The notes: generated from the letters alone by a model not told the origin. 64,000 bases of DNA from Minisyncoccia bacterium (GCA_965656375.1 CBFHKH010000001.1:132691-196690); one strand, 5' to 3'; counted from the stretch's first letter, positions 146 through 23,285 are shown. Program-made: numbers and translations.

Positions 146-2275
146 TTATTTTATAAGGTTAACAAGTTTAACTACAGCATCGTTTTTCAAGTGCTTGCTA
201 AATAGTTTAATGCTTTCATCAGCGCTTTTTGCTTTATCAACTTCTGCTAGTATTTTTGCATAATCTGTATTATCCTCTTTCATAGTTTTTTCTTGAAGCT
301 TTGAAAGTCTGTGCCTGATCATAGATAGAATTATTTTTTGATTAATATGTGGACTTGCAAAGGCTACAGCCTCAATTATATAGTCTGGTAACTCTGTTAG
401 ATGGTTGATGTTTTCACTAAGCATTAGTGCAAACCAGCCTTTTTTAAACTTTTCAGCAAGTCTAAGTACCTCTTTTCCGCTTACCGCAACATCTTCATCT
501 TCTAATGCTTCTTTTGCCTTTCTTTTGGCATCATCAGTTTTATACTCTTTATCAATTGTGCTGATTATTTCATAACTGTTTCCAGCTAAAAGAAAATCCA
601 CCTCAAATGTATGCTTGGCATAAAAGACATCAATCCACTCGTTATCTTCCACAAATTCATCTAAGTCCTCTTTTCGTTTCTGCCCACTAATTTGAGAATT
701 CCTAGAATCCTTTTCTTCTTGTGAATCTTTTTTAGGATCAGCCCCCAGTGAGAAAATTGATTTATCCAAATCGGTAACAATGGAGCATCTTTTCTTGATC
801 CTTAGTTCGTCAAAGAGCCTTGCAATATTTTCAAATCCGGTACTGCCGATATTGATTAAACTAATACCTATTTCATCAAGTGCTACACCGTAAACAGCTT
901 TCACCAATTCAGGGATAAGAATTTGTTCTGCGTCTCCTTCAACAAGAATCACACCTTTGGCAAAAAGCAGTGTGCTTCTCACAGCATCCAAATATCTCTC
1001 AACCCGACTTATCTCATTTTTCTTAAGACCATTTGATGGATTAAAAACCCATGCACTTTGTTTTGCCCTGCTCAATATATTTACAGAACTTATCTGGCTT
1101 ACAGATGAAATATGCGTTGAATGAGTTGATATTATTACTTGTGTATTTCTTTTATCTAATCGCTGGAAAAGTGTTTTTTGAATGTGAGTATGAATATGAG
1201 CCTCTGGTTCTTCAATTAATAGAAAATTAGCAACTCTTTCAAGTGCCTTTACCTTTTCATATTCTAATAATTTCAATGAAAGGTATATTAGGTTAGCACC
1301 TCCTAAACTTAATTCCCAAATTCTTCCCTGATAACCTTCTTCATCAGGATCGCCAACCCACATTTTAAGAGACTGTAACAGCTTCTCCATATCAGATGGA
1401 AGTTCTGATTGAATACTGATATTAGGTGCATAAGTCTCACCAACAGCTTCTTTTATGCTTTCTGAAATGCCTGTAGAAATATTCTTAACCTCGTCAAGGC
1501 TTGAAATATCATTGTTTAAAGTTTCTACCTTCTTTTCAATATCTTCTTTCTTTGCTACAGAAATGTATTTTTCCTTTCCTCTTAAAAGATTCAATAGTGG
1601 GTTGTTCCTATATGACTTTAAATCTTCTTCTACATCTCTTAATGCTTTAACAAATGTGCAGGAGACTTCATTCGATATTGAAAAATTTGATAACCTTACG
1701 CCGTAAATATCACTGCTTTCATCATCTGGATTAGGGAAGACAATCTTTTCAAAATCCCCAACATATTTTCTGTAAACATCGTCATCTGAAAAGTCAACAT
1801 TATTTCTTCCACGGTATGTTATTTCATAATCATTCAGGGTGATTTTGGATAAAATTTCTTCTAACCCTTCCTTTTTCCTTTTGGGGAGTTGTGAAAATTC
1901 ATATAACTGCTTTCTCATACTTTCACGGGGTCGACAACATAGCAAAACCGTCCCTTTAGTAGTATCAAACTCATCAACATGCCCAGCCTTGTGCATTGCA
2001 ATTGCTTGTAATTCTTCATCTGCATCTAGTTCGTCAAGTTGTATTTGTATGATTATCCAATGTCCTTTCCATATACCAATTGAGCGGTTAAAATCTGTTT
2101 CATTAAAGTAAGTTCTACGTGGGAGGTTTTCGTCAATTAAGAGTCGGAGGGCATATAGAAGATTAGTTTTCCCAGAACCATTTTCTCCAATTATTGTATT
2201 TACTCCTTTTTGGAAACAAAGCGAAGCATTACGAAAATTTCTGAAATTCCTGATTGACAATTTTGATATATGCAT
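146..2275 (-). CDS. OLD-family ATP-dependent endonuclease (ABC-type ATPase plus C-terminal Toprim), GajA-like
   Basis: 709 aa. N-terminal Walker A ([19 protein letters not shown]), a Walker B-like [11 protein letters not shown] motif, and a C-terminal Toprim signature ([17 protein letters not shown]). A UvrD-like gene immediately downstream gives the class 2 OLD/Gabija architecture. Confidence 0.75.
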
Positions 2276-2815: not shown

Positions 2816-3187
2816 ATGGTACTCATTGGCAGATTAACAAAAGACGCAGTTGTAGCACAACTGAAAGACGACAGGCAGGTAGTAAACTTCATACTTGTTG
2901 TAAATGACGGGTATAAACCCAAAGGGCATACTGAGTGGGTAAACCTCACCACATTCTTTAACTGTGCCTATTGGATAAGCACAAAGATTGCAGAACGACT
3001 AAAGAAAGGTAACTTGATTGAAGTTTCCGGCCGGATGTTTGTAACCACATACAAAGACATGAGCGGGGAAGCGAAAGCATCCATCAATTTCCATGTAGAT
3101 TCAATCAAGGTACACCAGCAGATGAAGGTTATTGCAACCCATGCAGAGGTCCCTAAAGAAGAACTGTTACCTGACCTGCCGTTTTAA
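2816..3187 (+). CDS. ssb: Single-stranded DNA-binding protein (short OB-fold SSB, mobile-element type)
   Basis: 123 aa. The MVLIGRLTKDAVV...VVNFILVVND N-terminus is typical of SSB OB-folds. A strong hairpin follows the stop codon. Confidence 0.55.
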   Translation: MVLIGRLTKDAVVAQLKDDRQVVNFILVVNDGYKPKGHTEWVNLTTFFNCAYWISTKIAERLKKGNLIEVSGRMFVTTYKDMSGEAKASINFHVDSIKVHQQMKVIATHAEVPKEELLPDLPF

Positions 3188-4198: not shown

Positions 4199-5938
4199 AT
4201 GAACGAACGAAAGAATATTGGCCTGTGGATAAGGGTTTCAACCGAATTGCAAGTTCAGGGAGATAGTCCTGAACACCATGAAAAACGAACAAAGCTTTAC
4301 GCTGAAGCAAAGGGCTGGAATGTTGTATCTGTATACAGGCTTGATGCGATGTCCGGAAAGTCAATAATGGATTATCCCGAAACAAAGCGGATGCTTAGCG
4401 ACATCAAAAATGGGCTTATTTCAGGAATCATTTTCTCCAAATTAGCTCGACTTGCCAGAAATACTAAAGAGCTCCTTGAAATTTCAGAATTGTTCAGAAA
4501 CAACAATGCTGACCTTATATCCCTTGCAGAATCAATAGACACTTCAACTCCAGCAGGCAGACTGTTTTATACAATGATTGCGGCTATGGCTCAATGGGAA
4601 AGGGAGGAAATTGCAGAGCGTGTTGCAGCTTCGGTGCCTATTCGGGCAAAAATGGGTAAGCCTTTGGGTGGTGCCGCTTCATTTGGGTATAAATGGGAGG
4701 GAAAAGAACTGATGATAGATGAAAAAGAAGCACCAGTGCGAAAGCTGATGTACGAGCTCTTTATCAAAATTAAAAGACGCAAGGCTGTAGCTGCTGAATT
4801 GAATAAATTAGGATACCGGACAAGAAATGGCTCACAATTTACCGATTCAACTGTTACCAGGCTGCTTCGGGATACTTCGGCAAAGGGTTTGAGAAGAGCA
4901 AACTATACAAAAAGCCTGGGAGAGAAGAAGCGCTGGGTTGCAAAGCCAGCAGAAGATTGGGTAATGCTTCCTTGTCCTGCAATTGTTTCAGAAGAAATCT
5001 GGAATGAATGCAACCAGATTTTAGACCAGCAGGAACGAAAGGTCATCAAACCGGGTCCAAGGGTAAGCCATTTATTGTCAGGCTATATTTACTGCGAATG
5101 CGGCAGGAAAATGTACGTGTATCATACAGCACCTGTTTTTGTCTGCAAAACTTGTAAAACCAAAATTGCGACCGCTGATATTGACGAAATTTATCATGCT
5201 CAGCTTAAATCTTTTTTGCTGACAGATTCTGGCGTCAATGATTTTATGGAAAGATCAAATTCGATTCTTCACGAAAAGGAATCATTGCTTTCTTCAACAA
5301 AAACCGAACATGGCAGAATCAAGAAGGAAATGGATGAATTGCTAACGATGAGGCTCTCGGGTGAGCTGTCAAAAGAGATATTTCCTGCCCACTATAAGCC
5401 TCTGGAGCAGCAATATCACCAATTAAGCGCTCAATTACCGGAGTTGGAGGCAGAGGTCGATTTTCTGAAGATTCAGGCCCTTTCTTCCGATACGGTTCTG
5501 GAAGAAGCCAAAGACTTGTACAATGGCTGGAATAACCTGGAATTTGATGAAAAAAGAGCCGTGGTTGAAACCATCACAGAGAAAATAACGATTGGTAAAC
5601 AAGAGATTACAGTAGCTTTAGCCTATATGCCAACACCAACCAACCAATTTATGCAAAATGCCGGGAAAGGGCATCACTTGGTATTTCCTGCATTGCCTTT
5701 TTCCCGGGCTATACATTCTTTAAAAAAACCACCCATTTCAGGTTTTCCCTGGCACCCGAAGACATTAGGAGAGAAGATATTACGAAAAAGGCTTGAACTT
5801 GGCTTGACTCAAGTAGAACTTGCAGAACAATTAGGGGTTAATGACCAAACGATAAGTAGATGGGAGACAGGGGAGAGTAAACCTTGGGCAAAACAGCAAG
5901 ATAAAATAGCTCAATTTCTTAACCAAACTACCTATTAA
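4199..5938 (+). CDS. Large serine recombinase (resolvase/invertase catalytic domain, recombinase domain, zinc ribbon) with a fused C-terminal XRE-type HTH
   Basis: 579 aa. N-terminus IGLWIRVSTELQ with the catalytic Ser context. A Cys-rich ribbon (CECGRKMY...CKTCK). The C-terminus ILRKRLELGLTQVELAEQLGVNDQTISRWETGESKP is a canonical HTH_XRE. Confidence 0.85.
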   Translation: MNERKNIGLWIRVSTELQVQGDSPEHHEKRTKLYAEAKGWNVVSVYRLDAMSGKSIMDYPETKRMLSDIKNGLISGIIFSKLARLARNTKELLEISELFRNNNADLISLAESIDTSTPAGRLFYTMIAAMAQWEREEIAERVAASVPIRAKMGKPLGGAASFGYKWEGKELMIDEKEAPVRKLMYELFIKIKRRKAVAAELNKLGYRTRNGSQFTDSTVTRLLRDTSAKGLRRANYTKSLGEKKRWVAKPAEDWVMLPCPAIVSEEIWNECNQILDQQERKVIKPGPRVSHLLSGYIYCECGRKMYVYHTAPVFVCKTCKTKIATADIDEIYHAQLKSFLLTDSGVNDFMERSNSILHEKESLLSSTKTEHGRIKKEMDELLTMRLSGELSKEIFPAHYKPLEQQYHQLSAQLPELEAEVDFLKIQALSSDTVLEEAKDLYNGWNNLEFDEKRAVVETITEKITIGKQEITVALAYMPTPTNQFMQNAGKGHHLVFPALPFSRAIHSLKKPPISGFPWHPKTLGEKILRKRLELGLTQVELAEQLGVNDQTISRWETGESKPWAKQQDKIAQFLNQTTY

Positions 5939-5953
5939 TTGTACATCTATTAT

Positions 5954-6610
5954 TTATAACTTAACCAAACCAACTTTTACCGCATACAGGGCTAATTGTA
6001 CCCTTGTATTAAGTTGTAATTTTTTACATAAAGCATCCCTGTAACCTTCAATTGTTTTGGGACTCAAGAACATTTTTTCAGCTATTTCAGCATATGTCAT
6101 ATCTGTACAAGCGAGTATCAAAAATGTTTCTTCTTTTTCAGAAAGTTGACCCAAATTAGTGCTGGGCTTAGATGTATTCTGCATTTCGACCGCCATTATT
6201 TCTGTAGCAATATCTGAGTAATACAGGCCTTTATTTGAAATCGCCTCTAAAGCCAGATGCATGTCTTCTACTTCAATATCTTTGGATAAATATCCCTTTA
6301 CACCTAATCGTAACATTTTTATTACCGATTCTTCTGTTTCTACCATTGAAACGACAAGCACACTTATGGATGGATAGTATTGTTTTAACCATCCCACAGT
6401 TTCATACCCATCCATATCCGGCATATCAATGTCCATGAGTATAATATCAGGAAGCATCCTTTTATCAAGTCTTTCCTTTAGCTCAATGCCACTCGCTGCT
6501 TCAAAGAGTACTGTATATTTACTTTCAGGGTCACTAAGGTTAATTAATTTTATGAGCCCTTTCCTGAATAAATTGTGATCATCAACAACAGCAAGGTTTA
6601 TTTTTTTCAT
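5954..6610 (-). CDS. Two-component response regulator, NarL/LuxR family (REC domain plus LuxR HTH)
   Basis: 218 aa. Receiver-domain motifs (LAVVDDH..., DIILMDIDMPDMDG). C-terminal LuxR-type HTH (LSEKEETFLILACTDMTYAEIAEKMFLSPKTIEGYR). Confidence 0.85.
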   Translation of the reverse strand: MKKINLAVVDDHNLFRKGLIKLINLSDPESKYTVLFEAASGIELKERLDKRMLPDIILMDIDMPDMDGYETVGWLKQYYPSISVLVVSMVETEESVIKMLRLGVKGYLSKDIEVEDMHLALEAISNKGLYYSDIATEIMAVEMQNTSKPSTNLGQLSEKEETFLILACTDMTYAEIAEKMFLSPKTIEGYRDALCKKLQLNTRVQLALYAVKVGLVKL

Positions 6611-6625
6611 AAATAGCTCGTTAAT

Positions 6626-7423
6626 TTATTTTGGGAGTACTATTGTTATTTCTGTTCCTTCACCGATTTTACTTTCAATATCCAAGACACCATCTATTAA
6701 TTTTGCCCTTTTTTGCATGTTCAAAATACCAGTGCTTTCATTTTTTCCTGATTCTTTCATTACATTGCCTAAATCAAAACCCACCCCGTCATCACTAATT
6801 TTCAGGGTTAATACAGTTTTTTCAAAATCAAATGTTACATAAATGTTTTTTGCTTTTGCGTACTTTAAAATATTATTAAGAGCTTCCTGGCATAGTCTGA
6901 ATAAGATTATCTCCCTCTCTGGCAACAGTCTGTATTCAACACCTGTTTTGGTAAGATTTGTGACAAATCGCTTTGTTTTAGAAAACCTTGCTAATTCATT
7001 CTCTAAAGCCTTAACAATGCCGATCTTCATAATATGCTCGGTGTTCAAACTAACACTCAATGCTTTTAAATCTCCCAAAACCTGTTTAGCAAGAGCCTTG
7101 GTTTCAAAAATATTTTCCTTAATACTATCAGAACAGTGTGGAAGTATTGCTGATAAATTAATATTGATTAGTGAAACAAGTTGACTGAAATTTGCATGCA
7201 ATTCCTTTGAGATATGGTTAAGAGTTTCTTCTTGTATTTCTATTTTCGACTGTAACAGAGTTTTTGTAAAATCTTCTCTGAGAGCAACTACTTCTTGTTG
7301 ATGTCGGTATCTTTTTTGCTGATACAGTAAAATATAGCGTACAATAATGACACCAAAGATCAATAACAGTACTGTGCTGATGATGATTGTGAGGGTTAAT
7401 ATTTGAGAAGAGGTTTCGGGCAT
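6626..7423 (-). CDS. Sensor histidine kinase, HisKA_3 (NarL-type) plus HATPase_c, with a single N-terminal TM
   Basis: 265 aa. H-box-like ISKELHANFSQL. An ATPase G-box region (DDGVGFD...GEGTEITIVLP). It lies adjacent to the NarL-type response regulator. Confidence 0.75.
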   Translation of the reverse strand: MPETSSQILTLTIIISTVLLLIFGVIIVRYILLYQQKRYRHQQEVVALREDFTKTLLQSKIEIQEETLNHISKELHANFSQLVSLININLSAILPHCSDSIKENIFETKALAKQVLGDLKALSVSLNTEHIMKIGIVKALENELARFSKTKRFVTNLTKTGVEYRLLPEREIILFRLCQEALNNILKYAKAKNIYVTFDFEKTVLTLKISDDGVGFDLGNVMKESGKNESTGILNMQKRAKLIDGVLDIESKIGEGTEITIVLPK

Positions 7424-8073
7424 AAGAATGCAATTGAATAAAAGGTGTACAGGATGCAGTTTAGGCCAAGGTATATGTAGTAAAGAGCGATAGCTAAAGA
7501 CAAATTTTTATGAATCAGATAGTCAAGACTTATGATGTAGGGTAAATTAGCAGCGTGGAAAATAAATGCGCCCAATGAAAGCCAAACCATTGGGTGTCCT
7601 GTCAATTTAATTGATTCGCTTGCATTTCTCAGTTGGTCAAAATAACAGACAGTTAAAAAGATAATAATTGCGCTAGATAATATTATTGTATAACTATTTA
7701 CAGTATGTATTGACTGAGAAAATAAAAGATTTAGTATTGAAAAAGCAGGGAAAAGAATTCCTAGTATTTTAATTATTTTTTTTAGAAATGGAGATTGAAT
7801 TGTTTGATAATAAACCATGAGGTATAAAAGATATTGAGGAATTAGAGCAATATTATACAACCATAAATTTGAATTGGTAAAAGAATAGGTCCCCAGGTTA
7901 TTATAGAAATAATATTTCCAAGAAATTGCAAAAAGTTCTGTAACAGAAATTATTATTAGAAGTAATGAAAAGATTTTATACTGAACAGGCCATCTCAGCC
8001 TGAAAACTTTCAGGCTGAGCAGCGTACTTACAAATAATGGTATGATATAAATGTGTTGCAGCAACTTTTGCAT
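7396..8073 (-). CDS. Polytopic membrane protein (about 6 TM); possibly the membrane sensor domain of the downstream histidine kinase (separate gene or frameshifted N-terminus)
   Basis: 225 aa, very hydrophobic. It overlaps the kinase ORF by 28 nt in another frame. Confidence 0.4.
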   Translation of the reverse strand: MQKLLQHIYIIPLFVSTLLSLKVFRLRWPVQYKIFSLLLIIISVTELFAISWKYYFYNNLGTYSFTNSNLWLYNIALIPQYLLYLMVYYQTIQSPFLKKIIKILGILFPAFSILNLLFSQSIHTVNSYTIILSSAIIIFLTVCYFDQLRNASESIKLTGHPMVWLSLGAFIFHAANLPYIISLDYLIHKNLSLAIALYYIYLGLNCILYTFYSIAFLCPKPLLKY

Positions 8074-8121
8074 ACTTCTAAAGTAATCAATCTTACCAAC
8101 ATATTGTATAATTAATTTATA

Positions 8122-8583
8122 CTAACAGATTGGTGGGCAGGGTGAGCCATAGTTAAATGGCTTAGGTGTTGCTTCTTCATCAAAAGAAATAGCCTTGCTA
8201 TTAGCAGATGCATTCTTTCGTTCTTCAAATCCGGGCTCATTTTCATAGATTATATCTGTATTTCCGGCACCATCGGCTGTAGGACGTGTTAACATTACAA
8301 CTAGGCATTGTTGTCCTGGTGCGATATGGTGATCTTCATCATATGCACCGAAGTATACTCTCATGCCGGTGGCATTCATAATATTCATTTCATCAAGCCA
8401 GGTTTGGACATGCTCCTTTGAGTACCAGACAGATTTTGTTTCATTTCTGTTTGCATCTTTTGCTTTTTGAGCGGCTTGTAGTAGCGGATATTTTTCAGTA
8501 TTATATTTTTCTGCCATTGATTTTACTTTTTCTGTGCCGATAAAAATGTCAGGTAATGGTTGAGCTGATTGAGGAATTTGCAT
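8122..8583 (-). CDS. Hypothetical protein, divergent from the TIR operon
   Basis: 153 aa ORF with no recognisable motif. Coding-like composition. Confidence 0.35.
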   Translation of the reverse strand: MQIPQSAQPLPDIFIGTEKVKSMAEKYNTEKYPLLQAAQKAKDANRNETKSVWYSKEHVQTWLDEMNIMNATGMRVYFGAYDEDHHIAPGQQCLVVMLTRPTADGAGNTDIIYENEPGFEERKNASANSKAISFDEEATPKPFNYGSPCPPIC

Positions 8584-8769
8584 AAAATGTTTTTTGAAGA
8601 ATTAATAAATCGGGTTGTTTTTGAGCTGGCAAGCTACATATGAAGGGGAAAAGAGAAAACCTCATAATACAAGGAAAGCCCCTGAATAAAATACCGGATT
8701 TTTCCCCTTCCAGAAAGGTTTTTTCCAAAAAGCAACATCGCCATCTTTGATAACTAAATCAGTAAAATT

Positions 8770-9180
8770 ATGGCAGACCCAAGAGTATTCATAAGTTTCG
8801 ACTATGATAATAACAAAGATGAAAAAATCCTTTTTGCCGGACAGGCAAAAAATTCCAGAACACCATTCAGTATAGAAGATTGGTCTTCGAAAACAGTATT
8901 GCCGCAAAAAGAATGGGAAGCATTAATTAATGCTAAAATAAATAAGTGCAATTTATTGATTGTATTGGTTGGCAAGAAAACCTATACAGCCACAGGTGTG
9001 GTTAAAGAAATATCATTTGCGAAAGCGAATGATGTTCCAGTGTTTGGTGTGTATGTTGACGGCGCAACTACAGCTACAGATTTGCCAGCAGGGTTACAGC
9101 GTAACCGGACAATAAGCTGGGACTGGGAAAAAATAGCAGATGCCATTGACCAGTGTATGAATGAAGGGAAAAATAAGTAA
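8770..9180 (+). CDS. TIR-like domain protein, DUF1863/MTH538 type (ThsB-like)
   Basis: 136 aa. The N-terminal RVFISFDYDNNKDE and the later LLIVLVGKKTYTATGVVKEISFA...VPVFGVYVDG match the PF08937-style TIR-like pattern. Confidence 0.55.
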   Translation: MADPRVFISFDYDNNKDEKILFAGQAKNSRTPFSIEDWSSKTVLPQKEWEALINAKINKCNLLIVLVGKKTYTATGVVKEISFAKANDVPVFGVYVDGATTATDLPAGLQRNRTISWDWEKIADAIDQCMNEGKNK

Positions 9181-9198
9181 GAGGTTAAATTGTAGATA

Positions 9199-9618
9199 AT
9201 GCTAAATGAGTTATTCGAATGGCTTTTTGGATCTGAGCCGAAAAAGAAAAGAAAAGTATTTATAAGTTTTGCAATTGAAGATAAAAAGTATAGAGACTTT
9301 TTAGTAAGCCAAGTCAAAAATGACAAAACTCCATTTGAATTTATTGATATGTCGGTAAAAAAGCCCTGGAGTGAGGAAGAGTGGAAAAAGCAATGCCGCA
9401 TCAAGATAAAGCAGTGTGACAGTATGATTGTACTGTTGAGCAAAAATACCTGGCACTCAAGTGGTTCAAGATGGGAAATAAAATGTGGTAGGAAAGAAAG
9501 ACTACGGATTATCGGGATGCATGTAAAAAAAGATGATAAGGGAGCTATACCACCTGAATTGCTTGGAAAAAGAGTCATTGAATGGTCATGGAAAAATCTT
9601 GAAAACTTTTTAAACTAA
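9199..9618 (+). CDS. TIR-like domain protein, DUF1863/MTH538 type (ThsB-like paralog)
   Basis: 139 aa. KVFISFAIEDKKYRDF...MIVLLSKNTWHSSGSRWEIKCG has the same architecture as the preceding ORF. It starts 19 nt after the previous stop. Confidence 0.55.
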   Translation: MLNELFEWLFGSEPKKKRKVFISFAIEDKKYRDFLVSQVKNDKTPFEFIDMSVKKPWSEEEWKKQCRIKIKQCDSMIVLLSKNTWHSSGSRWEIKCGRKERLRIIGMHVKKDDKGAIPPELLGKRVIEWSWKNLENFLN

Positions 9619-9623
9619 ATCTT

Positions 9624-10208
9624 ATGCCGTTATATACAAGTAAATACCTGAAATCACTATCTGCTAATAAAACTATAAATGAAAAGGCTAGATTATTTTC
9701 AGAAGCCCGTCAAAGAGCAACACAGTTTGATATTTTTCTCTCACACAGTTTTTTGGATAAAGACGAGGTTGAAGGTATTTATATCGAATTAACGGGCAAG
9801 GGATATTCAGTGTATGTTGACTGGATTATAGACCCGGATTTGAAAAGAAACAATGTTACTAAAGAATCTGCAGAACTTATCAGGAGAAGAATGCGGTCGT
9901 CTGAATCATTGTTGCTGGCAATATCAGATAATGCCGATTTATCAAGGTGGATTCCATGGGAATTAGGTTTTTTGGATGGACAACAATCACGTTGTTCGCT
10001 GTTTCCCGTATCTAAAAGTGATTTTGAGAAAACAACATTTGAGAGAAAGGAATACCTGCTTTTGTACCCGTATGTTAAGCTTGCAGAACTAGACTCCAGG
10101 AAGCAAATTATTCTTACAGAATCTTCAAATATATACACCACTTTAAATGACTGGGTGAAATACAAAATTCAACCGGGATACAAAGTAAAAAACATTAACT
10201 ATTTATGA
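9624..10208 (+). CDS. TIR domain protein (canonical TIR_2-like)
   Basis: 194 aa. FDIFLSHSFLDKDEV (the TIR box-1-like F/DIFISHS motif) and ...SRWIPWELGF (a W..E motif). Confidence 0.65.
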   Translation: MPLYTSKYLKSLSANKTINEKARLFSEARQRATQFDIFLSHSFLDKDEVEGIYIELTGKGYSVYVDWIIDPDLKRNNVTKESAELIRRRMRSSESLLLAISDNADLSRWIPWELGFLDGQQSRCSLFPVSKSDFEKTTFERKEYLLLYPYVKLAELDSRKQIILTESSNIYTTLNDWVKYKIQPGYKVKNINYL

Positions 10209-11173
10209 GAAAAGCATTAGTTGTAGGAATAAATAATTATCCGAATGCATCGCTTGCTGGATGCATAAACGATGCTTCAGCATTTGGAGCAATTATGGGA
10301 ACACATGGAAACGGGGATCCGAACTTTGCAGTTCGCCTTTGTACCGATGTGCCGACAAAAGGAAAGCTTACCGAACTTCTACAGGAACTTTTTAAAGGAG
10401 ATAGTGAAGTTGCGCTCTTTTATTTTTCAGGCCATGGATTTGAAAATGATTTAGGAGCTTATCTCGTAACCCCGGATGCGGCAAAGTTAGATGTGGGGGT
10501 TTCAATGGCTGATTTATTAGTGATGGCAAATAATTCAAAAGCAACTAATAAGGTTATTATTTTGGATTGTTGTCATTCCGGTGCTGCAGGTACATCAATG
10601 ATAACGGGAGGTGTCACAACATCTATAAACAAAGGGGTAACTATATTAACTGCAAGCAAGTCCGATGAATTTGCAATGGAGGTAAACGGGCATGGCGTTT
10701 TTACAAATCTTCTTATAGATGCATTACAAGGCGGTGCTGCAGATATCAGGGGCGATATTACTCCCGGAAGCATCTATTCCTATATTGACCAGGCTTTAGG
10801 GCCCTGGGATCAGCGGCCAGTTTTCAAAACAAACATCACTGAATTTATTTCATTACGGGAAATTGCTCCAAAAGTTCCTAAAGAAACCCTAAGAAAAATT
10901 ATTCAATATTTTTCTGAACCTGAACAGGAATTTCCATTAGACCCTTCATTTGAATATACCAATTCAGAAGAAGTGAAACATACTGTTGTAGAACCATTTG
11001 CAAAAGCTGAAAATGTAGATGTGTTTAAGGATCTTCAAAAATTCCAAAGTGTTGGGTTGGTTGTACCTGTGGGAGCATCTTACATGTACTTTGCTGCAAT
11101 GGAATCACAATCGTGCAGGTTAACTGCGCTTGGGTATCATTATTGGAGATTAGTTAAGGATGGAAGAATTTAA
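10205..11173 (+). CDS. Caspase-like cysteine peptidase (Peptidase_C14 / metacaspase-like) with a C-terminal domain of about 100 aa of unknown function
   Basis: 322 aa. KALVVGINNYP...L.GCINDA, a catalytic His in FYFSGHG (His77) and a catalytic Cys in IILDCCHSG (Cys123). The ATGA start/stop overlap with the upstream TIR gene indicates translational coupling. Confidence 0.75.
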   Translation: MRKALVVGINNYPNASLAGCINDASAFGAIMGTHGNGDPNFAVRLCTDVPTKGKLTELLQELFKGDSEVALFYFSGHGFENDLGAYLVTPDAAKLDVGVSMADLLVMANNSKATNKVIILDCCHSGAAGTSMITGGVTTSINKGVTILTASKSDEFAMEVNGHGVFTNLLIDALQGGAADIRGDITPGSIYSYIDQALGPWDQRPVFKTNITEFISLREIAPKVPKETLRKIIQYFSEPEQEFPLDPSFEYTNSEEVKHTVVEPFAKAENVDVFKDLQKFQSVGLVVPVGASYMYFAAMESQSCRLTALGYHYWRLVKDGRI

Positions 11174-12562
11174 ATGCGGCTAAGCAAAATACAATGTAAA
11201 ATGATGACGAAAAAAGATTGGACAATTGAAATCGGAAGTGGGGTAATAGATTGTTGTAGTAATAGGGGTGGAGACGTTGTAATTGCTGGTGACATTACTG
11301 GAAAATTTATCCTTTGTAATTGTGATGGGAAAATTCTATTAGAAAATAAAGTTGAGTTACCAATTTGGGGCGTGGATTTTTCTACTCAATTGGATGTAGT
11401 TGCAATCGGAACAGCTTCTAAATCTCCTTTAAAAGGAGAGCTTATCGTTTTTAAACAAAATGAAATAATCTTCAAGCATTCCTTATCAAGCCCTGTATGG
11501 GATGTAAAAATTATCGAAAACCTTCAATTAGTAGTTGCATCGACTTGGAAAGATGGATTAATTATTTATAGCCTGCTTTCCCAAACGTTTACAAGCTATT
11601 CTTTTGAAGAATCACTTTTTGGCTTGGCATATGAAGGGTCAAATTTATATATCGTTGCCTCCGAAAAGGGGGTTTATAAATTTGACTTAGATAGCCAAGA
11701 GCCGCCAATATTAATTTATGATGAAAGAACATGTTGCTATAATATTTACCATAACGAAATTGAGAGAGTACTCTATGTTGGATCAAATTCTAACACATTG
11801 TCAAAAATTGATTTAGTAAATACAAAAAATAGCAAGACATATATAACCCTTTCAAGACAAATAAGTGCTATAAGCCACTTTGGAGAGAATATTATAACAG
11901 GAGACCTTTCAGGAAATCTTTATGTCAATAAAATTAATGATTTTTTAGCACCAATCTATTACCAAAAACTTGAAGATGCGATTTGGAACCTACAGTTTAT
12001 AAGCGATAGTAAAAAATTACTTATCGCCAACGGAAATGGTTTTTTAGAGTGTTATTCGCTAAGTGAATCAGAATACAGCTATTGGAATTTTGAAAGCTTG
12101 CCATTTGATGAAAAACATTTAAAGGGTATCAAAATCTTTATTAATTACGCAAAAGAGGACAAGGATTCTGTTCTCAAACTTTATACCGCACTTCACACAA
12201 TTGGATGTACCCCTTGGATGGATGAGTTTAATATTTTACCAGGACAAAATTGGAAATATGAAACAACAAAAGCTATTGAAGAAGCTGACTTTATTTTGAT
12301 TTGCCTATCATCTTTTTCTGTGGCTAAAAAGGGGTATGTTCAAAAAGAGATAAAAATTGCACTTGATATCATCGATTTGTTACCACAAAACAAAGTATTT
12401 ATAATACCAATCAAATTAGATGAATGTAATGTTCCCGACAATTTAAAGGATTGGCAAGCTGTAGACCTATTTGCACCAAACGGGTTTCAAAAATTTGTTT
12501 ACTCAATATTTATTGACAGGATAAAATATCAGAGTATACTTAATAAGAGATTACTAAACTAA
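11174..12562 (+). CDS. WD40/beta-propeller repeat protein with a C-terminal TIR domain
   Basis: 462 aa. N-terminal repeated beta-strand blocks typical of WD40 or beta-propeller folds. The C-terminal IKIFINYAKEDKDSVL...WMDEFNILPGQNW...ADFILICLSSFSVAKKGYVQKEIKIA is a TIR_2 pattern. It starts 1 nt after the caspase stop. Confidence 0.6.
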   Translation: MRLSKIQCKMMTKKDWTIEIGSGVIDCCSNRGGDVVIAGDITGKFILCNCDGKILLENKVELPIWGVDFSTQLDVVAIGTASKSPLKGELIVFKQNEIIFKHSLSSPVWDVKIIENLQLVVASTWKDGLIIYSLLSQTFTSYSFEESLFGLAYEGSNLYIVASEKGVYKFDLDSQEPPILIYDERTCCYNIYHNEIERVLYVGSNSNTLSKIDLVNTKNSKTYITLSRQISAISHFGENIITGDLSGNLYVNKINDFLAPIYYQKLEDAIWNLQFISDSKKLLIANGNGFLECYSLSESEYSYWNFESLPFDEKHLKGIKIFINYAKEDKDSVLKLYTALHTIGCTPWMDEFNILPGQNWKYETTKAIEEADFILICLSSFSVAKKGYVQKEIKIALDIIDLLPQNKVFIIPIKLDECNVPDNLKDWQAVDLFAPNGFQKFVYSIFIDRIKYQSILNKRLLN

Positions 12563-12573
12563 AAACATATATT

Positions 12574-12933
12574 ATGAGTACAGAATTAAAACCAATCGTT
12601 TCAAAAGAAAATACTTTTGACCTACTGGAAATTAGGGTTGGCAGAGTTATAGATGCTGAAATAGAGCCATCGGCACCTAAGAAAGCCTATTTACTCAAAA
12701 TTGATTTCGGAAAATTTGGTATTAAAACCAGCGTTGGCAGATTTACACAACATTCGATTGAAGAGATTAAAGGGAGCCTCGTTTTAGGAGTTTTAAATTT
12801 TGGGAGCATCCAAATCGGAAACATTAATTCTGAAGTTTTGATTTTAGGAACTCAATTTCCAAAGGCGGATAGTGGCGAAGCTACTTTCATAGCTCCAAAG
12901 GCAGAGTCAAAAATTGGCGGAAAACTTTTTTAG
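12574..12933 (+). CDS. tRNA-binding domain protein (CsaA/YgjH/Trbp111-like, Myf/EMAP OB-fold)
   Basis: 119 aa. DLLEIRVGRVIDAEIEPSAPKKAYLLKIDFGKFG...VGRFTQHS is the classic tRNA_bind motif. It starts 12 nt after the WD40-TIR stop. Confidence 0.6.
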   Translation: MSTELKPIVSKENTFDLLEIRVGRVIDAEIEPSAPKKAYLLKIDFGKFGIKTSVGRFTQHSIEEIKGSLVLGVLNFGSIQIGNINSEVLILGTQFPKADSGEATFIAPKAESKIGGKLF

Positions 12934-15008: not shown

Positions 15009-15097
15009 AAGCCTGCCAAATTTTGATCTGTACCCCAAAAAGTGGACACTTACGTGCCCACTTTTTTTCTGTTCAATTATTAGGTATAACAATAGAT

Positions 15098-15511
15098 ATG
15101 AAGCAACAAACATTCACAAAAGAGCAAATAGATGGATTGTTACGAAATGAAAATGTCTTGAAGTTTTGCGGGACGTATATCGCATATACGCCCGAATTTA
15201 AGATGAGAGCGGTCGATCAGTATCTTCATAAGGGAATGTCACCAAAGGAAATATTTAGGCAGGCGGGGTTTGATTTAACCCTCTTCAGTAAGCATAAGCC
15301 AAGCTATCTGATGTGTGACTGGCGCAAAATATTTAAGAAAAAAGGGATTGATGGATTTAGTACGGAAACGAGAGGTAAGGATGGAGGGAGGCCGAGAAGA
15401 TTTGAAACTTTGTCAGATATGGAGAAAATTAAGCGATTGGAATTAGAGGTGCGATACCTCAAAAAGGAGAATGATTTTTTAGTCAGACTCCGGGCCAGAA
15501 GAGCGGAGTAA
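15098..15511 (+). CDS. IS3-family transposase OrfA (HTH, leucine-zipper-like C-terminus)
   Basis: MKQQTFTKEQIDGLL...LELEVRYLKKENDFLVRLRARRAE is typical of IS3/IS150 OrfA. The upstream ATG at 15023 lies in the inverted repeat and flank and is rejected. Confidence 0.75.
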   Translation: MKQQTFTKEQIDGLLRNENVLKFCGTYIAYTPEFKMRAVDQYLHKGMSPKEIFRQAGFDLTLFSKHKPSYLMCDWRKIFKKKGIDGFSTETRGKDGGRPRRFETLSDMEKIKRLELEVRYLKKENDFLVRLRARRAE

Positions 15512-15525
15512 AACTCTGGCCAAAA

Positions 15526-16392
15526 ATGAAATATGGATTAATACGAGAGATGGGAGATAGTGTTGATGTTCTCTGCGTAATTGCAGGAGTATCGCGAAGC
15601 GGATACTACAAATGGCTGGGACATGCAGACAAGCCAGAGAAAGACTATTGGGATTACAAGCTCATTAAGGATGTGTTTGATGAAGGAAGGGCCAAATATG
15701 GCTGGAGAACCCTGCAAATGAAGCTTAAAGCTGATAAGAGTGTCGTAATGAATCATAAGAAGATCATGAGGATTAAGAATAAGTATCACCTGATAACCAA
15801 GATACGAAGGAAGAATCTATATAAAAATATCATGAAATGCACACCAGACCATAAGACATTCAGGAATATCTTAAATAGGAAGTTTCAACAAAAGAGTCCC
15901 TTTAGAACATTTTGTACGGATATTACCTACCTGCCATTTAATAGCAGTATGGTGTATCTGTCTGCGGTTAAAGATGTTGCGAGTCTGGAAATTGTTGCGT
16001 GGTACTTGTCCCCAAATCTCACACTGAATATTTCTTTAGGAACGATTGAGAATATGAAAAAGAATAAAACCATTCCCACATTGAAGAATGTGTTGATACA
16101 TTCGGATCAAGGATTTTACTACACCAATCCTGACTATGTATATAGGACAAAGGAACTCAAGATGGTGCAATCAATGTCAAGAAAAGGAAATGCCATTGAT
16201 AATGCGCCGATTGAATCTTTCTTCGGTCATTTCAAAGATGACATTGATTACAAAGACTGCAAGACATTTGAAGAAGTAAAAATAGCCACCGGAAAATATA
16301 TAGAGTATTATAACAACGAGAGGCAGCAATGGAATTTAAAAAAGATGACCCCTGTAGAATACAGAAATCATCTTTTGTTGGCCCGCCAGTAG
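15526..16392 (+). CDS. IS3-family transposase OrfB (rve DDE integrase core)
   Basis: 288 aa. HTH_21-like N-terminus and DDE residues in FCTDITYL..., IHSDQGFYYT and NAPIESFFGHFKDD. It is in the -1 frame relative to orfA. Confidence 0.8.
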   Translation: MKYGLIREMGDSVDVLCVIAGVSRSGYYKWLGHADKPEKDYWDYKLIKDVFDEGRAKYGWRTLQMKLKADKSVVMNHKKIMRIKNKYHLITKIRRKNLYKNIMKCTPDHKTFRNILNRKFQQKSPFRTFCTDITYLPFNSSMVYLSAVKDVASLEIVAWYLSPNLTLNISLGTIENMKKNKTIPTLKNVLIHSDQGFYYTNPDYVYRTKELKMVQSMSRKGNAIDNAPIESFFGHFKDDIDYKDCKTFEEVKIATGKYIEYYNNERQQWNLKKMTPVEYRNHLLLARQ

Positions 16393-16465
16393 GTTTAAGA
16401 GTGTCCACTCTAAAGGGTACACATCAATTTCTCCAAGCAGACTTTGTTGTACTAATAATCATAGG

Positions 16466-17383
16466 TTAATCTGATGATTCATTCGCATCTTCTTTTGGTT
16501 CACCTTCCATTCTACCTAGTATCCAATCCACCGCCTTTTGCGCCCCACCGGCAGCGGTAATAATGCACTTTTTGTCGTTTTTCAATACGTCAAGCCAGCC
16601 TTGTATATAGGCGGTATGATTGGCAATTTCAAACGGCAGTATGCTGGTAAACTGGCAAAGGAATGCTGCCCCCATTTCAGCAATTAACTCCTCCTGGGCA
16701 TAGCTTTCTGACCCAAACGAAGTCCGGTCAACAAGTGTTTTTCGGTCAAGCCGTTTAGCTGCACCGGTTGCATGCACCAACTCGTGCCACAAGGTTGCAT
16801 AGTAGCTGTGAGAGGTTTTAAAGTCCTTCATCTTGGGCATTGTGATTTCATCTGTTTCAACATTGTAGTATGCCGAAGCTTTGCCTTTAAATGAGATGAG
16901 TGGCATATCTGCAATATTGTGTAAGATACTCTCACATTCCATGATCGGATCAGGGCTTTTCCAGGCTTCCTGAACCGGGACAATGCTAACCGGAATGTCT
17001 TTACATTGCTCCAGGTTGAAGACTTTGTAATACCTGAGCATAGGAACAGTTGCAAAACTGCCATCGGCATTCTTTTCTTCTGGCTTTTTCTTAACATTCT
17101 TCCAGAATACAATAATGTGGCCCTTTTCGTCCTTAAGGACTGAGCCTTCCAAGGCCTTGATTTGATCCCAGGTTAAGAAGCAGTTACTTTCATACGGAAG
17201 GGCATTTAACAGCCAGAGATTGATACCACGATATGGCCGTTTACTCAGCATGTTGATGGGCATACCGGTTTCTTTCCAGGGTCGTTGCCAGGGCACCACG
17301 CCTTGTTGAAGCAACTCAATTACTTTGTCGGTAACAATTTGATACAAGTCCAAATCTTTGGACGTAGATGTTTGTGAATCCAT
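16466..17383 (-). CDS. ArdC-like antirestriction protein (N-terminal ssDNA-binding domain plus C-terminal zincin-like metalloprotease)
   Basis: LDLYQIVTDKVIELLQQGVVPWQRPW...RPYRGINLWLL is the ArdC-N pattern. HELVHATG is an HExxH motif. The start is taken at the internal Met (MDSQTS...). Confidence 0.7.
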   Translation of the reverse strand: MDSQTSTSKDLDLYQIVTDKVIELLQQGVVPWQRPWKETGMPINMLSKRPYRGINLWLLNALPYESNCFLTWDQIKALEGSVLKDEKGHIIVFWKNVKKKPEEKNADGSFATVPMLRYYKVFNLEQCKDIPVSIVPVQEAWKSPDPIMECESILHNIADMPLISFKGKASAYYNVETDEITMPKMKDFKTSHSYYATLWHELVHATGAAKRLDRKTLVDRTSFGSESYAQEELIAEMGAAFLCQFTSILPFEIANHTAYIQGWLDVLKNDKKCIITAAGGAQKAVDWILGRMEGEPKEDANESSD

Positions 17384-17502
17384 AATTCTAAGATTTAATT
17401 GTGAAAGAATAATTGTTTCTTTCAGCATAGCTGAATTCACATAGAAGCATAAGGGAGGGAAATTTGTCAGATAAGCAAGTGAGAGTGTAAGAAAAAAAGG
17501 AG

Positions 17503-17973
17503 TCATAAGACTCCTATACAATCTTCGAATGAAATAAATCCTTCAGGGCTAAGAACAAGATGATCCAGGACTTTAATATCAAGAAAGCGCCCGCCATTGA
17601 TTATCTTGTTTGTCAGGGTAATATCAGCGTTACTAAACGCGAGATTCCCAGAGGGGTGATTATGAGCAAGGATAATCTGGCAGGCATTTGTCTTTAGGGC
17701 AACTGAAAATACCTGTTTGGGATCCATGACAGTTCCGGTACATGAGCCTGAAGAAATATGATGGATTCCAAGTACCCGGTTAGACCTGTTAAGGAGCAAG
17801 AGTTTTGCCTGTTCAACCAGGTATATCTTGTCCATATCCCAGCACGTAAGGAAAATATTATACGCATCAACTGCGCCTCGAATAAGTGGCAGCTCCGAGG
17901 GCTTCAACCTTGGCCGGTAAATAACTTCAATTTCACAGGCGACAAGGGGTAATGGGTTTTCTGATTCTTTCAT
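17503..17973 (-). CDS. RadC-like JAB/MPN domain protein
   Basis: The JAMM motif AHNHPSGNLAFSNAD is present. The start is taken at the internal Met (MKESEN...). Confidence 0.7.
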   Translation of the reverse strand: MKESENPLPLVACEIEVIYRPRLKPSELPLIRGAVDAYNIFLTCWDMDKIYLVEQAKLLLLNRSNRVLGIHHISSGSCTGTVMDPKQVFSVALKTNACQIILAHNHPSGNLAFSNADITLTNKIINGGRFLDIKVLDHLVLSPEGFISFEDCIGVL

Positions 17974-18096
17974 ACTAATAAGTTTTAAATGAATGTATTT
18001 ATAACAAAGCATATAGGAAGGGAAGTGATGACATAAGGGCGGGTAATTTGCTGATGAGGCAAACAAAAAACAGGAGATATACTCCTGTTTTTTCAG

Positions 18097-18579
18097 TTAC
18101 TTTCCCTGAACAACTAAGGTAGCCACCGCCACTGCTTCAAAGAGCTTTACATAATAGCGTTTCTGGTTCTTCAGTTCCCGCCGGTAGCAGATCATAAGCT
18201 GGGGGAATTGAAGGGTAAGAGATTCCATGAGAACCTTTTTCAGCTTTTGTTTCCCTTCCGGTATTAAGAGATGAAACTCAGAGATTCTCTTTTCAAAAAC
18301 AGGAATGAGGTTGGCCTTAAAGTACTCTTTGAGCCTAAGCAAAAGGTATCTGAAACCCTTTGTCTGATGATGTGGTGGCGGTATTGACAAAATAACTCTT
18401 TTAATACAGTATTGGCGCACACACGGCTCCAGACTGGAGATTATCATATCCGCTTTCCCAGGCGACCAGGACGCTTTATGTAGATGAATTTTGTAGTCTA
18501 CAAGAGCATTCCCCGAGTTGATAATTGCCAGCCCAAGGAGCCGTGTGTTTGTACTAATGCCGAGTGTCATGTTTGGCAT
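18097..18579 (-). CDS. Hypothetical protein, possibly YqgF/RuvX-like RNase H-fold nuclease
   Basis: 160 aa. MTLGISTNTRLLGLAII...ADMIISSLEPCVRQYCIKRVILSIP loosely follows the RuvX pattern (LGIDxG...GVAV...VVGLP). The similarity is weak. Confidence 0.3.
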   Translation of the reverse strand: MPNMTLGISTNTRLLGLAIINSGNALVDYKIHLHKASWSPGKADMIISSLEPCVRQYCIKRVILSIPPPHHQTKGFRYLLLRLKEYFKANLIPVFEKRISEFHLLIPEGKQKLKKVLMESLTLQFPQLMICYRRELKNQKRYYVKLFEAVAVATLVVQGK

Positions 18580-18793
18580 TGCCTTGGTTGATAAGGAAGG
18601 TGTAGAGGGCTGCCCGGCTTTTCCTGATCTTCTCCGGAGGAAGCGTCATCACCTTATTGAGTACCTTTCGTAAGTATTCCTCTTTATACTTCCTGACATA
18701 CTGCAGGTGCATAACCAGGGAATCTCTGTCCTCCAGGGTTTCGGCTATTTCATTGGCAAGCCTTCGTTCATGGGGTTCATAATCATGATTCAT
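18554..18793 (-). CDS. Small hypothetical protein
   Basis: 79 aa ORF in an operon-like run with RadC and ArdC. Confidence 0.3.
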   Translation of the reverse strand: MNHDYEPHERRLANEIAETLEDRDSLVMHLQYVRKYKEEYLRKVLNKVMTLPPEKIRKSRAALYTFLINQGNAKHDTRH

Positions 18794-19008
18794 AGCAATA
18801 GATAGTTACTAATAAACCCCTCCCAATGGACTTATCCACACACGATACGTTCTTTTATCCTTTCGTTATCGTTAATCGTTCGTTTTTATACTATTGAATT
18901 TTCAAACAACAGAATTTCACCCATGAGAGGGAAAATGAAAAGGACAGCAAGTGTCCTTTTCACGTTGTTGCATTGCAACAACCACTGATTCTATGTTTTC
19001 ATATCGGC

Positions 19009-19284
19009 TTAGAGATTAGAAATAATGGACTCAGTTTCCTGAGTAAACAAGGGAACCGAGGCGGTAATATCACGCCACAGTTCCGGAAAAAGTTCATGCG
19101 GCCAAGTTCTGTATATCTGGGCAAGACGGAAGACCTGCACAATGCCAGGAAGCTTACTACCATGCTCCCATCGTGAGAGGGTGCTGGTATCAGCAAGCCC
19201 AAGCATACGTGCCACTTTCTTTTGAGAATACCCGGCTGTGCGCCTGAACATTTTTAACTTGTTTGGAACCCGACTAATTTCCAT
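19009..19284 (-). CDS. XRE-family helix-turn-helix transcriptional regulator
   Basis: TAGYSQKKVARMLGLADTSTLSRWEHGSKLP is a canonical HTH_XRE. Confidence 0.7.
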   Translation of the reverse strand: MEISRVPNKLKMFRRTAGYSQKKVARMLGLADTSTLSRWEHGSKLPGIVQVFRLAQIYRTWPHELFPELWRDITASVPLFTQETESIISNL

Positions 19285-19434
19285 AAATCTGATTGTATGA
19301 AAATATGAGAAGGGATATAAGGGAGGGCTATTTGAGTTTTAGGCAAAAACTGGGGATAACTCAAAAATTGGCTTTTGGAGTGCTATCTTGATTACTTATC
19401 CTTTAGATACTTTAACAAGCTAAAATTATTACTT

Positions 19435-20388: not shown

Positions 20389-20410
20389 CTAATTATTATC
20401 AGCTAACACC

Positions 20411-20971
20411 TTGCTAAAGGAAAAGAGAGATATTATCATCGTCCAACTTATTACATTAAGTAGGGCCATAGCGGCTTTAGTGTTTATTACAATTGCTCTT
20501 ACACCCAAATTTGTCTTCGCAGCTACTGTCTTATTTATCTATGCTTGTGTAACTGATGTAGTTGATGGATTTCTCGCGAGGAAATTTTCCTGCACTACAA
20601 ATACTGGAAAAATTTTAGATCTGTTTGGTGACAAGTATCTTACTGTGATTTCATTAACTTATGCAATCGCAAGAGGGATGCCAGCCTTGCCCTGTGCAAT
20701 TGCAATTTTAAGGGAAATATTATTACTATCTATGCGGTCTATATATATGGAGGGAGAACCTTTATTTCCTCCACAAAGATTATTAGGAACTTTAATGGTA
20801 ATTCCAATATGGTCTGGAACTGTCTTATTACTTTTATCACAAGATATTTTACCTGCATCAACAACTTTTTTCGCATTCTATTTTTGGATATTAGGTGGCT
20901 TAGCAAGCATAAACCTGACATACAAAATACTAGTAAACTGGAAAAAAATATTGCAATCTTTTAACTCTTAG
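20411..20971 (+). CDS. CDP-alcohol phosphatidyltransferase family membrane protein
   Basis: DVVDGFLARKFSCTTNTGKILDLFGDK matches the D-G-x2-A-R-x8-G-x3-D-x3-D signature. Multiple TM segments. Confidence 0.6.
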   Translation: MLKEKRDIIIVQLITLSRAIAALVFITIALTPKFVFAATVLFIYACVTDVVDGFLARKFSCTTNTGKILDLFGDKYLTVISLTYAIARGMPALPCAIAILREILLLSMRSIYMEGEPLFPPQRLLGTLMVIPIWSGTVLLLLSQDILPASTTFFAFYFWILGGLASINLTYKILVNWKKILQSFNS

Positions 20972-20977
20972 TTAAGA

Positions 20978-22126: not shown

Positions 22127-22242
22127 TTGTTGGAGTAAGAAAGATAATGAAAATATATAAATTATTCATAGCTTATTTTAACAGACACTAGATATTCCCA
22201 ATTATTTAAGTAAATAGTATTGTATAAAAACTAACAATAATT

Positions 22243-23273: not shown

Positions 23274-23285
23274 ATAAGAGCAAAA

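Follow-up and report, generated by a model that had tools for sequence, protein, structure and literature searches.

The 64,000-nucleotide stretch analysed here, from Minisyncoccia bacterium (GCA_965656375.1 CBFHKH010000001.1:132691-196690), carries five genes in tandem on the plus strand at 8770-12562, of which the first four, g1 to g4 (8770-11173), very probably make up a type IV Thoeris defence system comprising three ThsB sensors and one ThsE effector. The fifth gene, g5, encodes a WD40 β-propeller joined to a TIR domain and, to judge from where its relatives occur, is most simply seen as a separable module beside an insertion hot spot. Both would be placed under the control of a two-component system encoded divergently upstream. 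We give this composite reading, of a type IV Thoeris system, a separate fifth module and two-component control, a probability of roughly 0.65. Throughout, the window means the whole 64,000-nucleotide stretch, with coordinates counted from its first letter, and L numbers denote comparison loci, among them 80 species-level loci gathered around homologues of the g4 caspase. By its best matches the window appears to be Chitinophagaceae-like (Bacteroidota). The names ThsB and ThsE follow Yirmiya et al. (10.64898/2025.12.03.692087). The five genes are:

8770-9180, plus strand: g1, ThsB-type TIR protein of the DUF1863/PF08937 class (136 residues; catalytic Glu E80)
9199-9618, plus strand: g2, ThsB-type TIR protein, nearest to PsTIR (139 residues; catalytic Glu E93)
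9624-10208, plus strand: g3, classical ThsB TIR protein with the motif FDIFLSHSF (194 residues; catalytic Glu E113)
10205-11173, plus strand: g4, ThsE-type caspase-like protease (322 residues; H77/C123 dyad)
11174-12562 (462 residues) or 11201-12562 (453 residues), plus strand: g5, WD40 β-propeller and TIR_2 domain (E392, in the numbering of the 462-residue version)

Open reading frame (ORF) calling recovered all five genes where an initial annotation, made from the sequence alone, had placed them. The tight packing described there is real, with its exact figures (4-nucleotide overlaps, or separations of 1 or 19 nucleotides) slightly off. The gaps are 18 nucleotides between g1 and g2 and 5 between g2 and g3, g3 and g4 overlap by 4 nucleotides (ATGA), and g5 follows g4 with a spacing of 0 or 27 nucleotides, depending on whether it starts at the in-frame ATG at 11174 or further downstream at 11201, as in the public gene call. 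A terminator scan found no terminator-like site between the five genes, its sole plus-strand match lying inside the g5 coding sequence.

In type IV Thoeris a TIR protein makes N7-cyclic ADP-ribose (N7-cADPR), in response to which a caspase-like protease cuts proteins after arginine, leading to abortive infection (Rousset et al., 10.1101/2024.10.24.620036). Protection by abortive infection has been established for TIR-plus-caspase homologues from Pseudomonas and E. coli, with phage T6 among the targets, and a phage sponge against the type IV signal has been published. The initial annotation recognised this logic in the window and called the system recently proposed, a description that has been overtaken now that the N7-cADPR signal, the effector activity and the sponge are in print; it also understated the match, since g1-g4 are very probably a member of the family itself.

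The assignment draws on the domains of g1-g4, their catalytic residues, their family membership and a gene order that recurs in other genomes. We file the four genes under type IV Thoeris because three ties bind the window to validated systems: the genomes listed in Table S1 of Rousset et al., the homology between PsTIR and g2, and the N-terminus of PsCaspase. Compared with the cloned PsTIR, whose sequence was taken from Table S2 of the same paper, g2 is 38% identical over 123 residues, full length (blastp 2e-32), and its E93 aligns with PsTIR E79. The g4 protease is 66% identical over all 322 residues to the caspase genes of Algoriphagus faecimaris DSM 23095 and Arenibacter echinorum DSM 23522 (L030 and L031), both of whose genomes appear in Table S1, and the positions of the TIR genes in these two loci agree with the gene IDs given there. 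The first nine residues, MRKALVVGI, are identical in g4 and PsCaspase, a comparison that covers those nine residues only. The window thus holds a C14 protease with an intact dyad, the C-terminal domain characteristic of the family and adjacent TIR proteins with their catalytic Glu; no SIR2 or SLOG domain of the kind expected in type I Thoeris was found among the ORFs at 5.9-15 kb. Across the 80 species-level loci, small TIR genes flank the caspase in 76, with one such gene in about 46, two in about 22 and three in 8.

Pfam and PADLOC profile searches upheld every TIR and caspase domain call of the initial annotation. Its two DUF1863-type proteins, g1 and g2, both match the ThsB_TIR family PF08937 (1e-9 and 8e-13 in Pfam), g1 also matching ThsB1 in PADLOC at 7e-10, and its canonical TIR protein, g3, matches TIR_2 (PF13676) at 2e-6, the PADLOC ThsB1 model PDLC00422 at 7e-49 and, in the PDB, the TIR domain-containing protein 8btn_B at 1.2e-36. 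Aligned with PsTIR, the g1 protein shows 29% identity, and its E80 falls opposite E79 of PsTIR. In about 26 loci the gene immediately before the caspase encodes a g1 orthologue (65-84% identity); genes of the g3 type adjoin the caspase in 10 of the 80. A catalytic Glu is found in all four TIR domains (E80 in g1, E93 in g2, E113 in g3 and E392 in g5), and among family members it is kept in 29 of 29 cases for E80, 75 of 77 for E93 and 15 of 15 for E113.

The caspase assignment of g4 is equally clear, with a match to Peptidase_C14 (PF00656) at 6e-19 in Pfam and an AlphaFold2 model that has the caspase fold. Its best structural match by Foldseek (2.6e-10) is the paracaspase MALT1, which is Arg-specific. 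The dyad of His77 and Cys123, correctly described as intact in the initial annotation, is invariant across 37 homologues, and in the same alignment the C-terminal domain (about residues 205-322) is strongly conserved, with many invariant positions. Foldseek aligned the caspase domain only and left the C-terminal domain unmatched; this domain lacks a match to a solved ligand pocket because none of the available structures is of ThsE. Searched by sequence against the PDB, g4 gave a weak metacaspase match only. No type IV Thoeris model fired in an NCBIfam search, and the NCBIfam family caspase_w_EACC1, which g4 matches with 103 bits, below the cutoff of 140, was rejected as an assignment. Homologues are abundant: more than 7,991 are full-length, the best 120 are all of about 322 residues and 64-100% identical, from several bacterial phyla, and further relatives, 55-80% identical, turned up in a scan of genomes from Bacteroidota, Bacillota, Patescibacteria, Proteobacteria and archaea.

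By homology to the Pseudomonas and E. coli systems, g1, g2 and g3 would each recognise a different phage cue, and the TIR protein that had done so would convert NAD+ to the cyclic product N7-cADPR by means of its conserved Glu. This signal would then bind the conserved C-terminal domain of ThsE, which Rousset et al. (10.1101/2024.10.24.620036) propose as the signal receptor, and the activated protease would cleave many cellular proteins after arginine and so abort the infection. The identity of the signal, the mode of activation and the phenotype are thus presumed for g1-g4 by analogy with these relatives.

Comparison with characterised systems suggests that g1-g4 are an ordinary member of the family. 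As is typical of type IV Thoeris, small TIR genes abut or overlap a caspase-like protease of about 320 residues, whose His/Cys dyad is accompanied by a conserved C-terminal domain, in a defence island. The locus departs from the usual arrangement in having three divergent ThsB genes upstream of the protease instead of one, and in carrying a presumably co-transcribed WD40-TIR gene downstream and a divergent two-component cluster upstream. The first of these differences has ample precedent. In Table S1 of Rousset et al. (10.1101/2024.10.24.620036), many systems have an entry under 'Additional TIR'. It is a recognised property of Thoeris that one effector may be served by several divergent thsB genes, which in type I were shown to broaden the range of phages covered (Ofir et al., 10.1101/2021.01.06.425286), and a Sediminibacterium (Chitinophagaceae) island has six ThsB genes with a type IV effector (Yirmiya et al., 10.64898/2025.12.03.692087). 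The window resembles these loci in serving one effector with several mutually divergent TIR genes, and differs from them in that its effector is ThsE only. The loci L001 (Lacibacter luteus), L045, L069, L076, L088-L091 and L094 share the g1-g2-g3-caspase order of the window, and another three-TIR order, g2-g3-caspase-g2, is found in L008, L010 and L011. Given these published multi-ThsB loci and the recurrence of the three-ThsB cassette in other Chitinophagaceae, g1-g4 are unexceptional: three-sensor type IV Thoeris is common in the family, and the sensor set of the window is not very unusual. The initial annotation had regarded its configuration of sensors as undescribed, which does not hold for the three ThsB proteins and holds, as rarity, for the WD40-TIR protein alone.

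An all-against-all comparison revealed a further TIR class, of 152-210 residues, encoded just downstream of the caspase in many relatives. More generally, the slot after the caspase is filled in close relatives by other conserved TIR modules that are absent from the window. One consists of a TIR protein of about 510 residues, a vWA protein, a PP2C phosphatase, a Ser/Thr kinase and a DUF4407 protein, and another of a TIR protein of 186-210 residues, three uncharacterised genes and a DUF4407 protein; such modules lie at 6782-11541 in L045, 3324-9481 in L088, 6909-11449 in L001, 8005-12498 in L090, 1-5631 in L092 and 1-4426 in L094. A third, at 6985-9766 in L049, 6909-9937 in L069 and 6970-9922 in L076, has an uncharacterised protein of 440-517 residues, whose N-terminus is hydrophobic and, judged by eye, resembles a signal peptide, followed by a TIR-TPR protein of 486-492 residues. 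The first two modules may be separate TIR systems or extensions of type IV Thoeris. Two Chitinophagaceae loci, L065 (3205-6969) and L074 (3202-6969), combine the two-component cluster with a caspase of the ThsE type, on neither side of which a TIR gene was detected.

The one truly uncommon component of the locus is the WD40-TIR gene. Its domain architecture was correctly recognised in the initial annotation: g5 matches TIR_2 at 9e-24, and although Pfam matches to propeller families are weak, the AlphaFold2 model has about 28 β-strands over residues 1-290, mostly with pLDDT (the per-residue confidence score) above 90, followed by a TIR domain at 310-450, and Foldseek matches WD40 proteins at 2.5e-17. 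This number of strands in the model is consistent with a seven-bladed propeller. In PADLOC, g5 matches no ThsB model at E<=0.01, nor does it match PF08937; its PADLOC matches are to Aga_TIR, PDC-S66, bSEFIR, RT-TIR and SAVED_TIR, the best of them being effector-type TIRs linked to pAgo, RT, SAVED or SEFIR proteins. By sequence, the solved structures nearest to its TIR domain are those of bacterial TIR-domain proteins, among them the NAD(+) hydrolase AbTIR, and of TIR-APAZ. In this respect g5 resembles SpbK (PMC12847820) and the SPARTA/TIR-APAZ proteins, the NAD-consuming TIRs to which its TIR_2 domain is closest. It also resembles single-protein TIR defence of the SpbK type in joining a sensor domain to a TIR domain with no NTPase between; a STAND/NLR-like protein of the Avs type was considered, and Pfam and the model revealed only propeller and TIR, with no NACHT or NB-ARC NTPase. 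Unlike SpbK-type proteins, g5 has as its sensor a WD40 propeller of about seven blades, belongs to a rare family and appears to occupy a conserved site in the core genome.

The rarity of the fusion contrasts with the ubiquity of its TIR domain. A word-indexed search found four full-length relatives of g5 (37-56% identity), and when 1.84 billion cluster representatives (50% identity) were searched exhaustively with a profile, about a dozen full-length WD40-TIR members were found, as against thousands of relatives of the TIR domain alone, joined to a wide variety of other domains. The catalytic Glu of g5 is an invariant residue. No paper using the term 'TIR-WD40' or 'WD40-TIR' was found in a full-text literature search.

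Is g5, then, part of the Thoeris system that precedes it? The initial annotation treated all five genes as one unit, which they are not in any obligate sense. No WD40-TIR gene is present in any of the 80 species-level caspase loci, and the g1-g3-caspase cassette occurs without one in at least 10 loci; cassettes that are 80-89% identical to that of the window carry instead the TIR-vWA-PP2C-kinase-DUF4407 module, the TIR, three genes and DUF4407, or the uncharacterised gene with TIR-TPR. Seven contexts of the WD40-TIR gene had a readable neighbourhood. Its place in the window and in L082-84 is immediately after g1-g2-g3-caspase, an order that is kept even though g5 is only 47% identical between them. 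In L081 it follows a two-component operon, 3 kb from a different caspase and TIR pair. In L095 (7001-9034) and L096 (2033-4066) the orthologue, P0183 (677 residues), has an N-terminal CHAT domain of caspase fold with the dyad motifs HFSSHG and LNACYS, a marginal match at 24.1 bits against a cutoff of 24. In the remaining three contexts, L085, L086 and L097, there is no caspase or ThsB gene nearby. A caspase-fold protease is therefore adjacent, nearby or fused in four of the seven.

A more constant neighbour is the gene for a CsaA/YgjH-like tRNA-binding protein, which in the window lies immediately beyond g5:

12574-12933, plus strand: CsaA/YgjH-like tRNA-binding protein (PF01588, 2e-7; NCBIfam tRNA-binding protein, 2e-22, below cutoff)

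In each of the six contexts where the flanks of the WD40-TIR gene are readable, this gene is no more than 4 kb away, and in four it is directly adjacent, with gaps of 11-65 nucleotides (its coordinates elsewhere are 8049-8408 in L082, 729-1085 in L086, 9058-9417 in L095 and 7186-7560 in L097). The site usually also has a gene for ProDH, ProRS or a methyltransferase, and P0183 too is found there. The recurrence of these genes beside it points to a conserved core-genome site as the residence of the WD40-TIR gene. We considered the CsaA-like protein as a functional partner; since it is 69-78% identical across the loci and keeps company with ProDH, ProRS and methyltransferase genes, its presence is probably core-genome synteny instead. 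A long-standing resident of this chromosomal site, beside the tRNA-binding gene, g5 would here have come to be co-transcribed behind a Thoeris cassette, and would act as a single-protein module in which the propeller senses and the TIR domain consumes NAD+.

On the other side of g1, facing the TIR/caspase operon, is a cluster of four genes identified by Pfam matches, hydropathy and recurrence across loci, together with an operator-like repeat:

5954-8583, minus strand: two-component cluster of four genes, divergent from g1
8122-8583, minus strand: unk153, uncharacterised protein of 153 residues, the first gene of the cluster
7396-8073, minus strand: multi-pass membrane protein (hydropathy)
6626-7423, minus strand: histidine kinase with one N-terminal transmembrane segment (HATPase_c in Pfam; hydropathy)
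5954-6610, minus strand: NarL/GerE response regulator (Response_reg and GerE in Pfam)
8696-8726, plus strand: putative operator, direct repeat GGATTTTTCC-N11-GGTTTTTTCC, upstream of g1 in the shared promoter region

The same divergent arrangement with the TIR/caspase operon is seen in L001, L045, L049, L065, L069, L074, L076, L081, L082 and L090-L094, with the exception of L093, where the cluster faces a SEFIR/TIR gene instead. One of the genomes that have the cluster belongs to the Sphingobacteriaceae, and its outer flanks differ between most loci. The 153-residue family is a small one, with only 32 clusters in 5.8 billion proteins.

The core of the repeat, GGWTTTTTCC, has two matches only in the 64-kb window, both within the direct repeat, and the paired motif occurs 13 times in the 1.06 Mb of loci plus window, compared with 0.07 in block shuffles, every occurrence being in a locus that carries the two-component cluster. 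In L081 the pair lies directly upstream of the WD40-TIR gene. A degenerate inverted copy is present in the window at about 8645-8661, and some 20 nucleotides downstream of the direct repeat is the sequence CTTTGA (8745-8750), containing TTTG, which we take to be a -7-like promoter element of the Bacteroidota type. A sigma-70 promoter scan, which is unsuited to Bacteroidota promoters, gave fewer hits than shuffled sequence and was set aside. Loci in which the regulator is only 25-31% identical lack a GGWTTTTTCC-type repeat, and in L049, L065, L074 and L082 paired TACCTA-N4-TAGGTA palindromes stand in the same place; the operator thus co-varies with the regulator.

This pattern makes the response regulator a candidate to control the TIR/caspase operon through the direct repeat, a proposal to which we would give an even chance. 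If it is right, the whole unit would be under a dedicated, membrane-linked two-component system acting through an operator in the divergent promoter. There are parallels in CapK/CapS, CapW and CapH/CapP, regulator pairs found upstream of immune operons, including 12 type IV Thoeris operons with CapK/CapS (EMBO J 2026, PMC13373217): there, as here, regulatory genes stand beside the promoter of an abortive-infection system and the promoter region contains conserved repeats. Unlike those pairs, the candidate regulator in the window consists of a classical membrane-linked histidine kinase and a NarL-type response regulator, together with a separate multi-pass membrane protein and the 153-residue protein, and is not a cytoplasmic sensor of DNA damage. 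A literature search found no description of a two-component regulator at a type IV Thoeris locus.

How far do these observations bear on alternatives to the reading preferred here? We lean towards g5 being autonomous, not an input to ThsE. What weighs against this is largely what would favour a single five-gene system, in which the WD40-TIR protein would serve as a fourth, long-form sensor, its propeller binding a phage protein and its TIR signal activating ThsE. The gene is on the same strand as the caspase, only 0-27 nucleotides behind it and with no terminator between; their adjacency is preserved in L082-84 at 47% g5 identity; and the relative in L081, 3 kb from a caspase and TIR pair that represents a second type IV variant, is itself preceded by a copy of the shared operator-promoter. 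The invariant catalytic Glu of g5 also fits such a role, as does the fact that relatives with three ThsB genes all hold some other TIR gene after the caspase, and that in L081 and L092 the caspase has no TIR neighbour other than one of the post-caspase class of 152-210 residues. We nevertheless think a single system unlikely, given the absence of the WD40-TIR gene from the 80 caspase loci, its caspase-free occurrence in L085, L086 and L097, the lack of any match to a ThsB profile in a TIR domain closest to NAD-depleting effectors, and a most constant neighbour that is a tRNA-binding gene in a core neighbourhood of CsaA, ProDH and ProRS. A broader version, in which the two-component system gates through its operator a multi-sensor TIR-caspase regulon that includes the WD40-TIR protein as a protease-coupled long-form sensor, appears similarly doubtful; in its favour are the position of g5 behind ThsE in the window, the regulated-promoter copy in L081 and the CHAT fusion in P0183. 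That fusion of a caspase-fold protease with WD40-TIR also tells against the autonomy of g5. For g1-g4 themselves, two points count against the reading: the identity of the g4 C-terminal domain with that of the validated effector PsCaspase is indirect, and the product of g3 might differ from N7-cADPR because the g3 class also serves type I Thoeris.

The same fusion lies behind another alternative, a circuit at the level of the proteins, in which the protease would process or release the TIR NADase, or the propeller would assemble protease and TIR as joint effectors, giving ThsE a second role. P0183 joins its CHAT domain to an orthologous WD40-TIR at the CsaA-linked site, and a caspase-fold protease accompanies the family in four of seven contexts. 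We consider this improbable, however, in view of the marginal CHAT match, the membership of CHAT in a clan-CD family different from that of ThsE, the three contexts without a protease, and a low-confidence linker between WD40 and TIR in g5 that has no arginine, the residue after which ThsE-type proteases cut. A role outside immunity, for example in developmental or stress-induced cell death, would fit the dedicated two-component system and operator, which suggest environmental regulation; it seems highly improbable when homologous TIR-plus-caspase operons give protection from phage T6, a phage sponge counteracts the signal, Gabija and mobile-element genes are neighbours of the locus, and the genes downstream of the caspase change from locus to locus in the manner of a defence island.

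The surroundings of the locus are those of a mobile, defence-rich region, as the initial annotation had said, with recombinase and mobile-element genes on both sides:

1 to about 141, minus strand: start of GajB, UvrD-like (first 46 or so residues in the window; helicase motif I ACPGSGKT)
146-2275, minus strand: complete GajA of Gabija (PADLOC 1e-290 over 707 of 709 positions; OLD TOPRIM and AAA_15)
2816-3187: SSB gene, between Gabija and the two-component cluster
4199-5938: large serine recombinase with a C-terminal helix-turn-helix, between Gabija and the two-component cluster
15023-16392: IS3-family transposase, two ORFs
16466-17521, minus strand: ArdC anti-restriction-like protein
17503-18066, minus strand: RadC
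19375-20388: tyrosine integrase
23286-24980: second large serine recombinase

Gabija is represented by GajA followed by a UvrD-like GajB that runs off the left edge of the window. It is not immediately adjacent to the TIR/caspase operon, as had been claimed: about 6.5 kb separate it from g1, occupied by the SSB gene, the serine recombinase and the four-gene two-component cluster. A relative of this recombinase (61% identity) directly flanks the regulator in L045. The genes at 15023-24980 resemble what is left of integrative or conjugative elements next to the defence genes. A search for att-like direct repeats around the cassette gave short, chance-like matches only, and there is no tRNA gene nearby. 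Elsewhere in the window, the leucyl-tRNA synthetase ORF (1002 residues, 29571-32579) has a NUDIX match at residues 448-567, after the editing domain, which is an unusual insertion.

With g1-g4 the natural examples of type IV Thoeris increase by one, a result useful for cataloguing and in itself unsurprising. Wider interest could rest on two leads from the comparison of loci, namely the link between the two-component system and its operator, and the pairing of WD40-TIR with caspase-fold proteases. Abortive-infection systems must stay silent until they are needed, and, if the first lead is borne out, a membrane-sensing two-component system with its own operator would be a new means of gating TIR/caspase immunity, distinct from CapW, CapH/CapP and CapK/CapS. 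Should both hold, the locus would represent a Thoeris variant with transcriptional gating by envelope signals and a propeller-type pattern receptor. The recurrent association of WD40-TIR with a caspase-fold protease echoes the pairing of TIR and caspase in animal innate immunity and, if the coupling is real, Thoeris sensors would include, besides small TIR-only proteins, receptor-like ones with a repeat domain.

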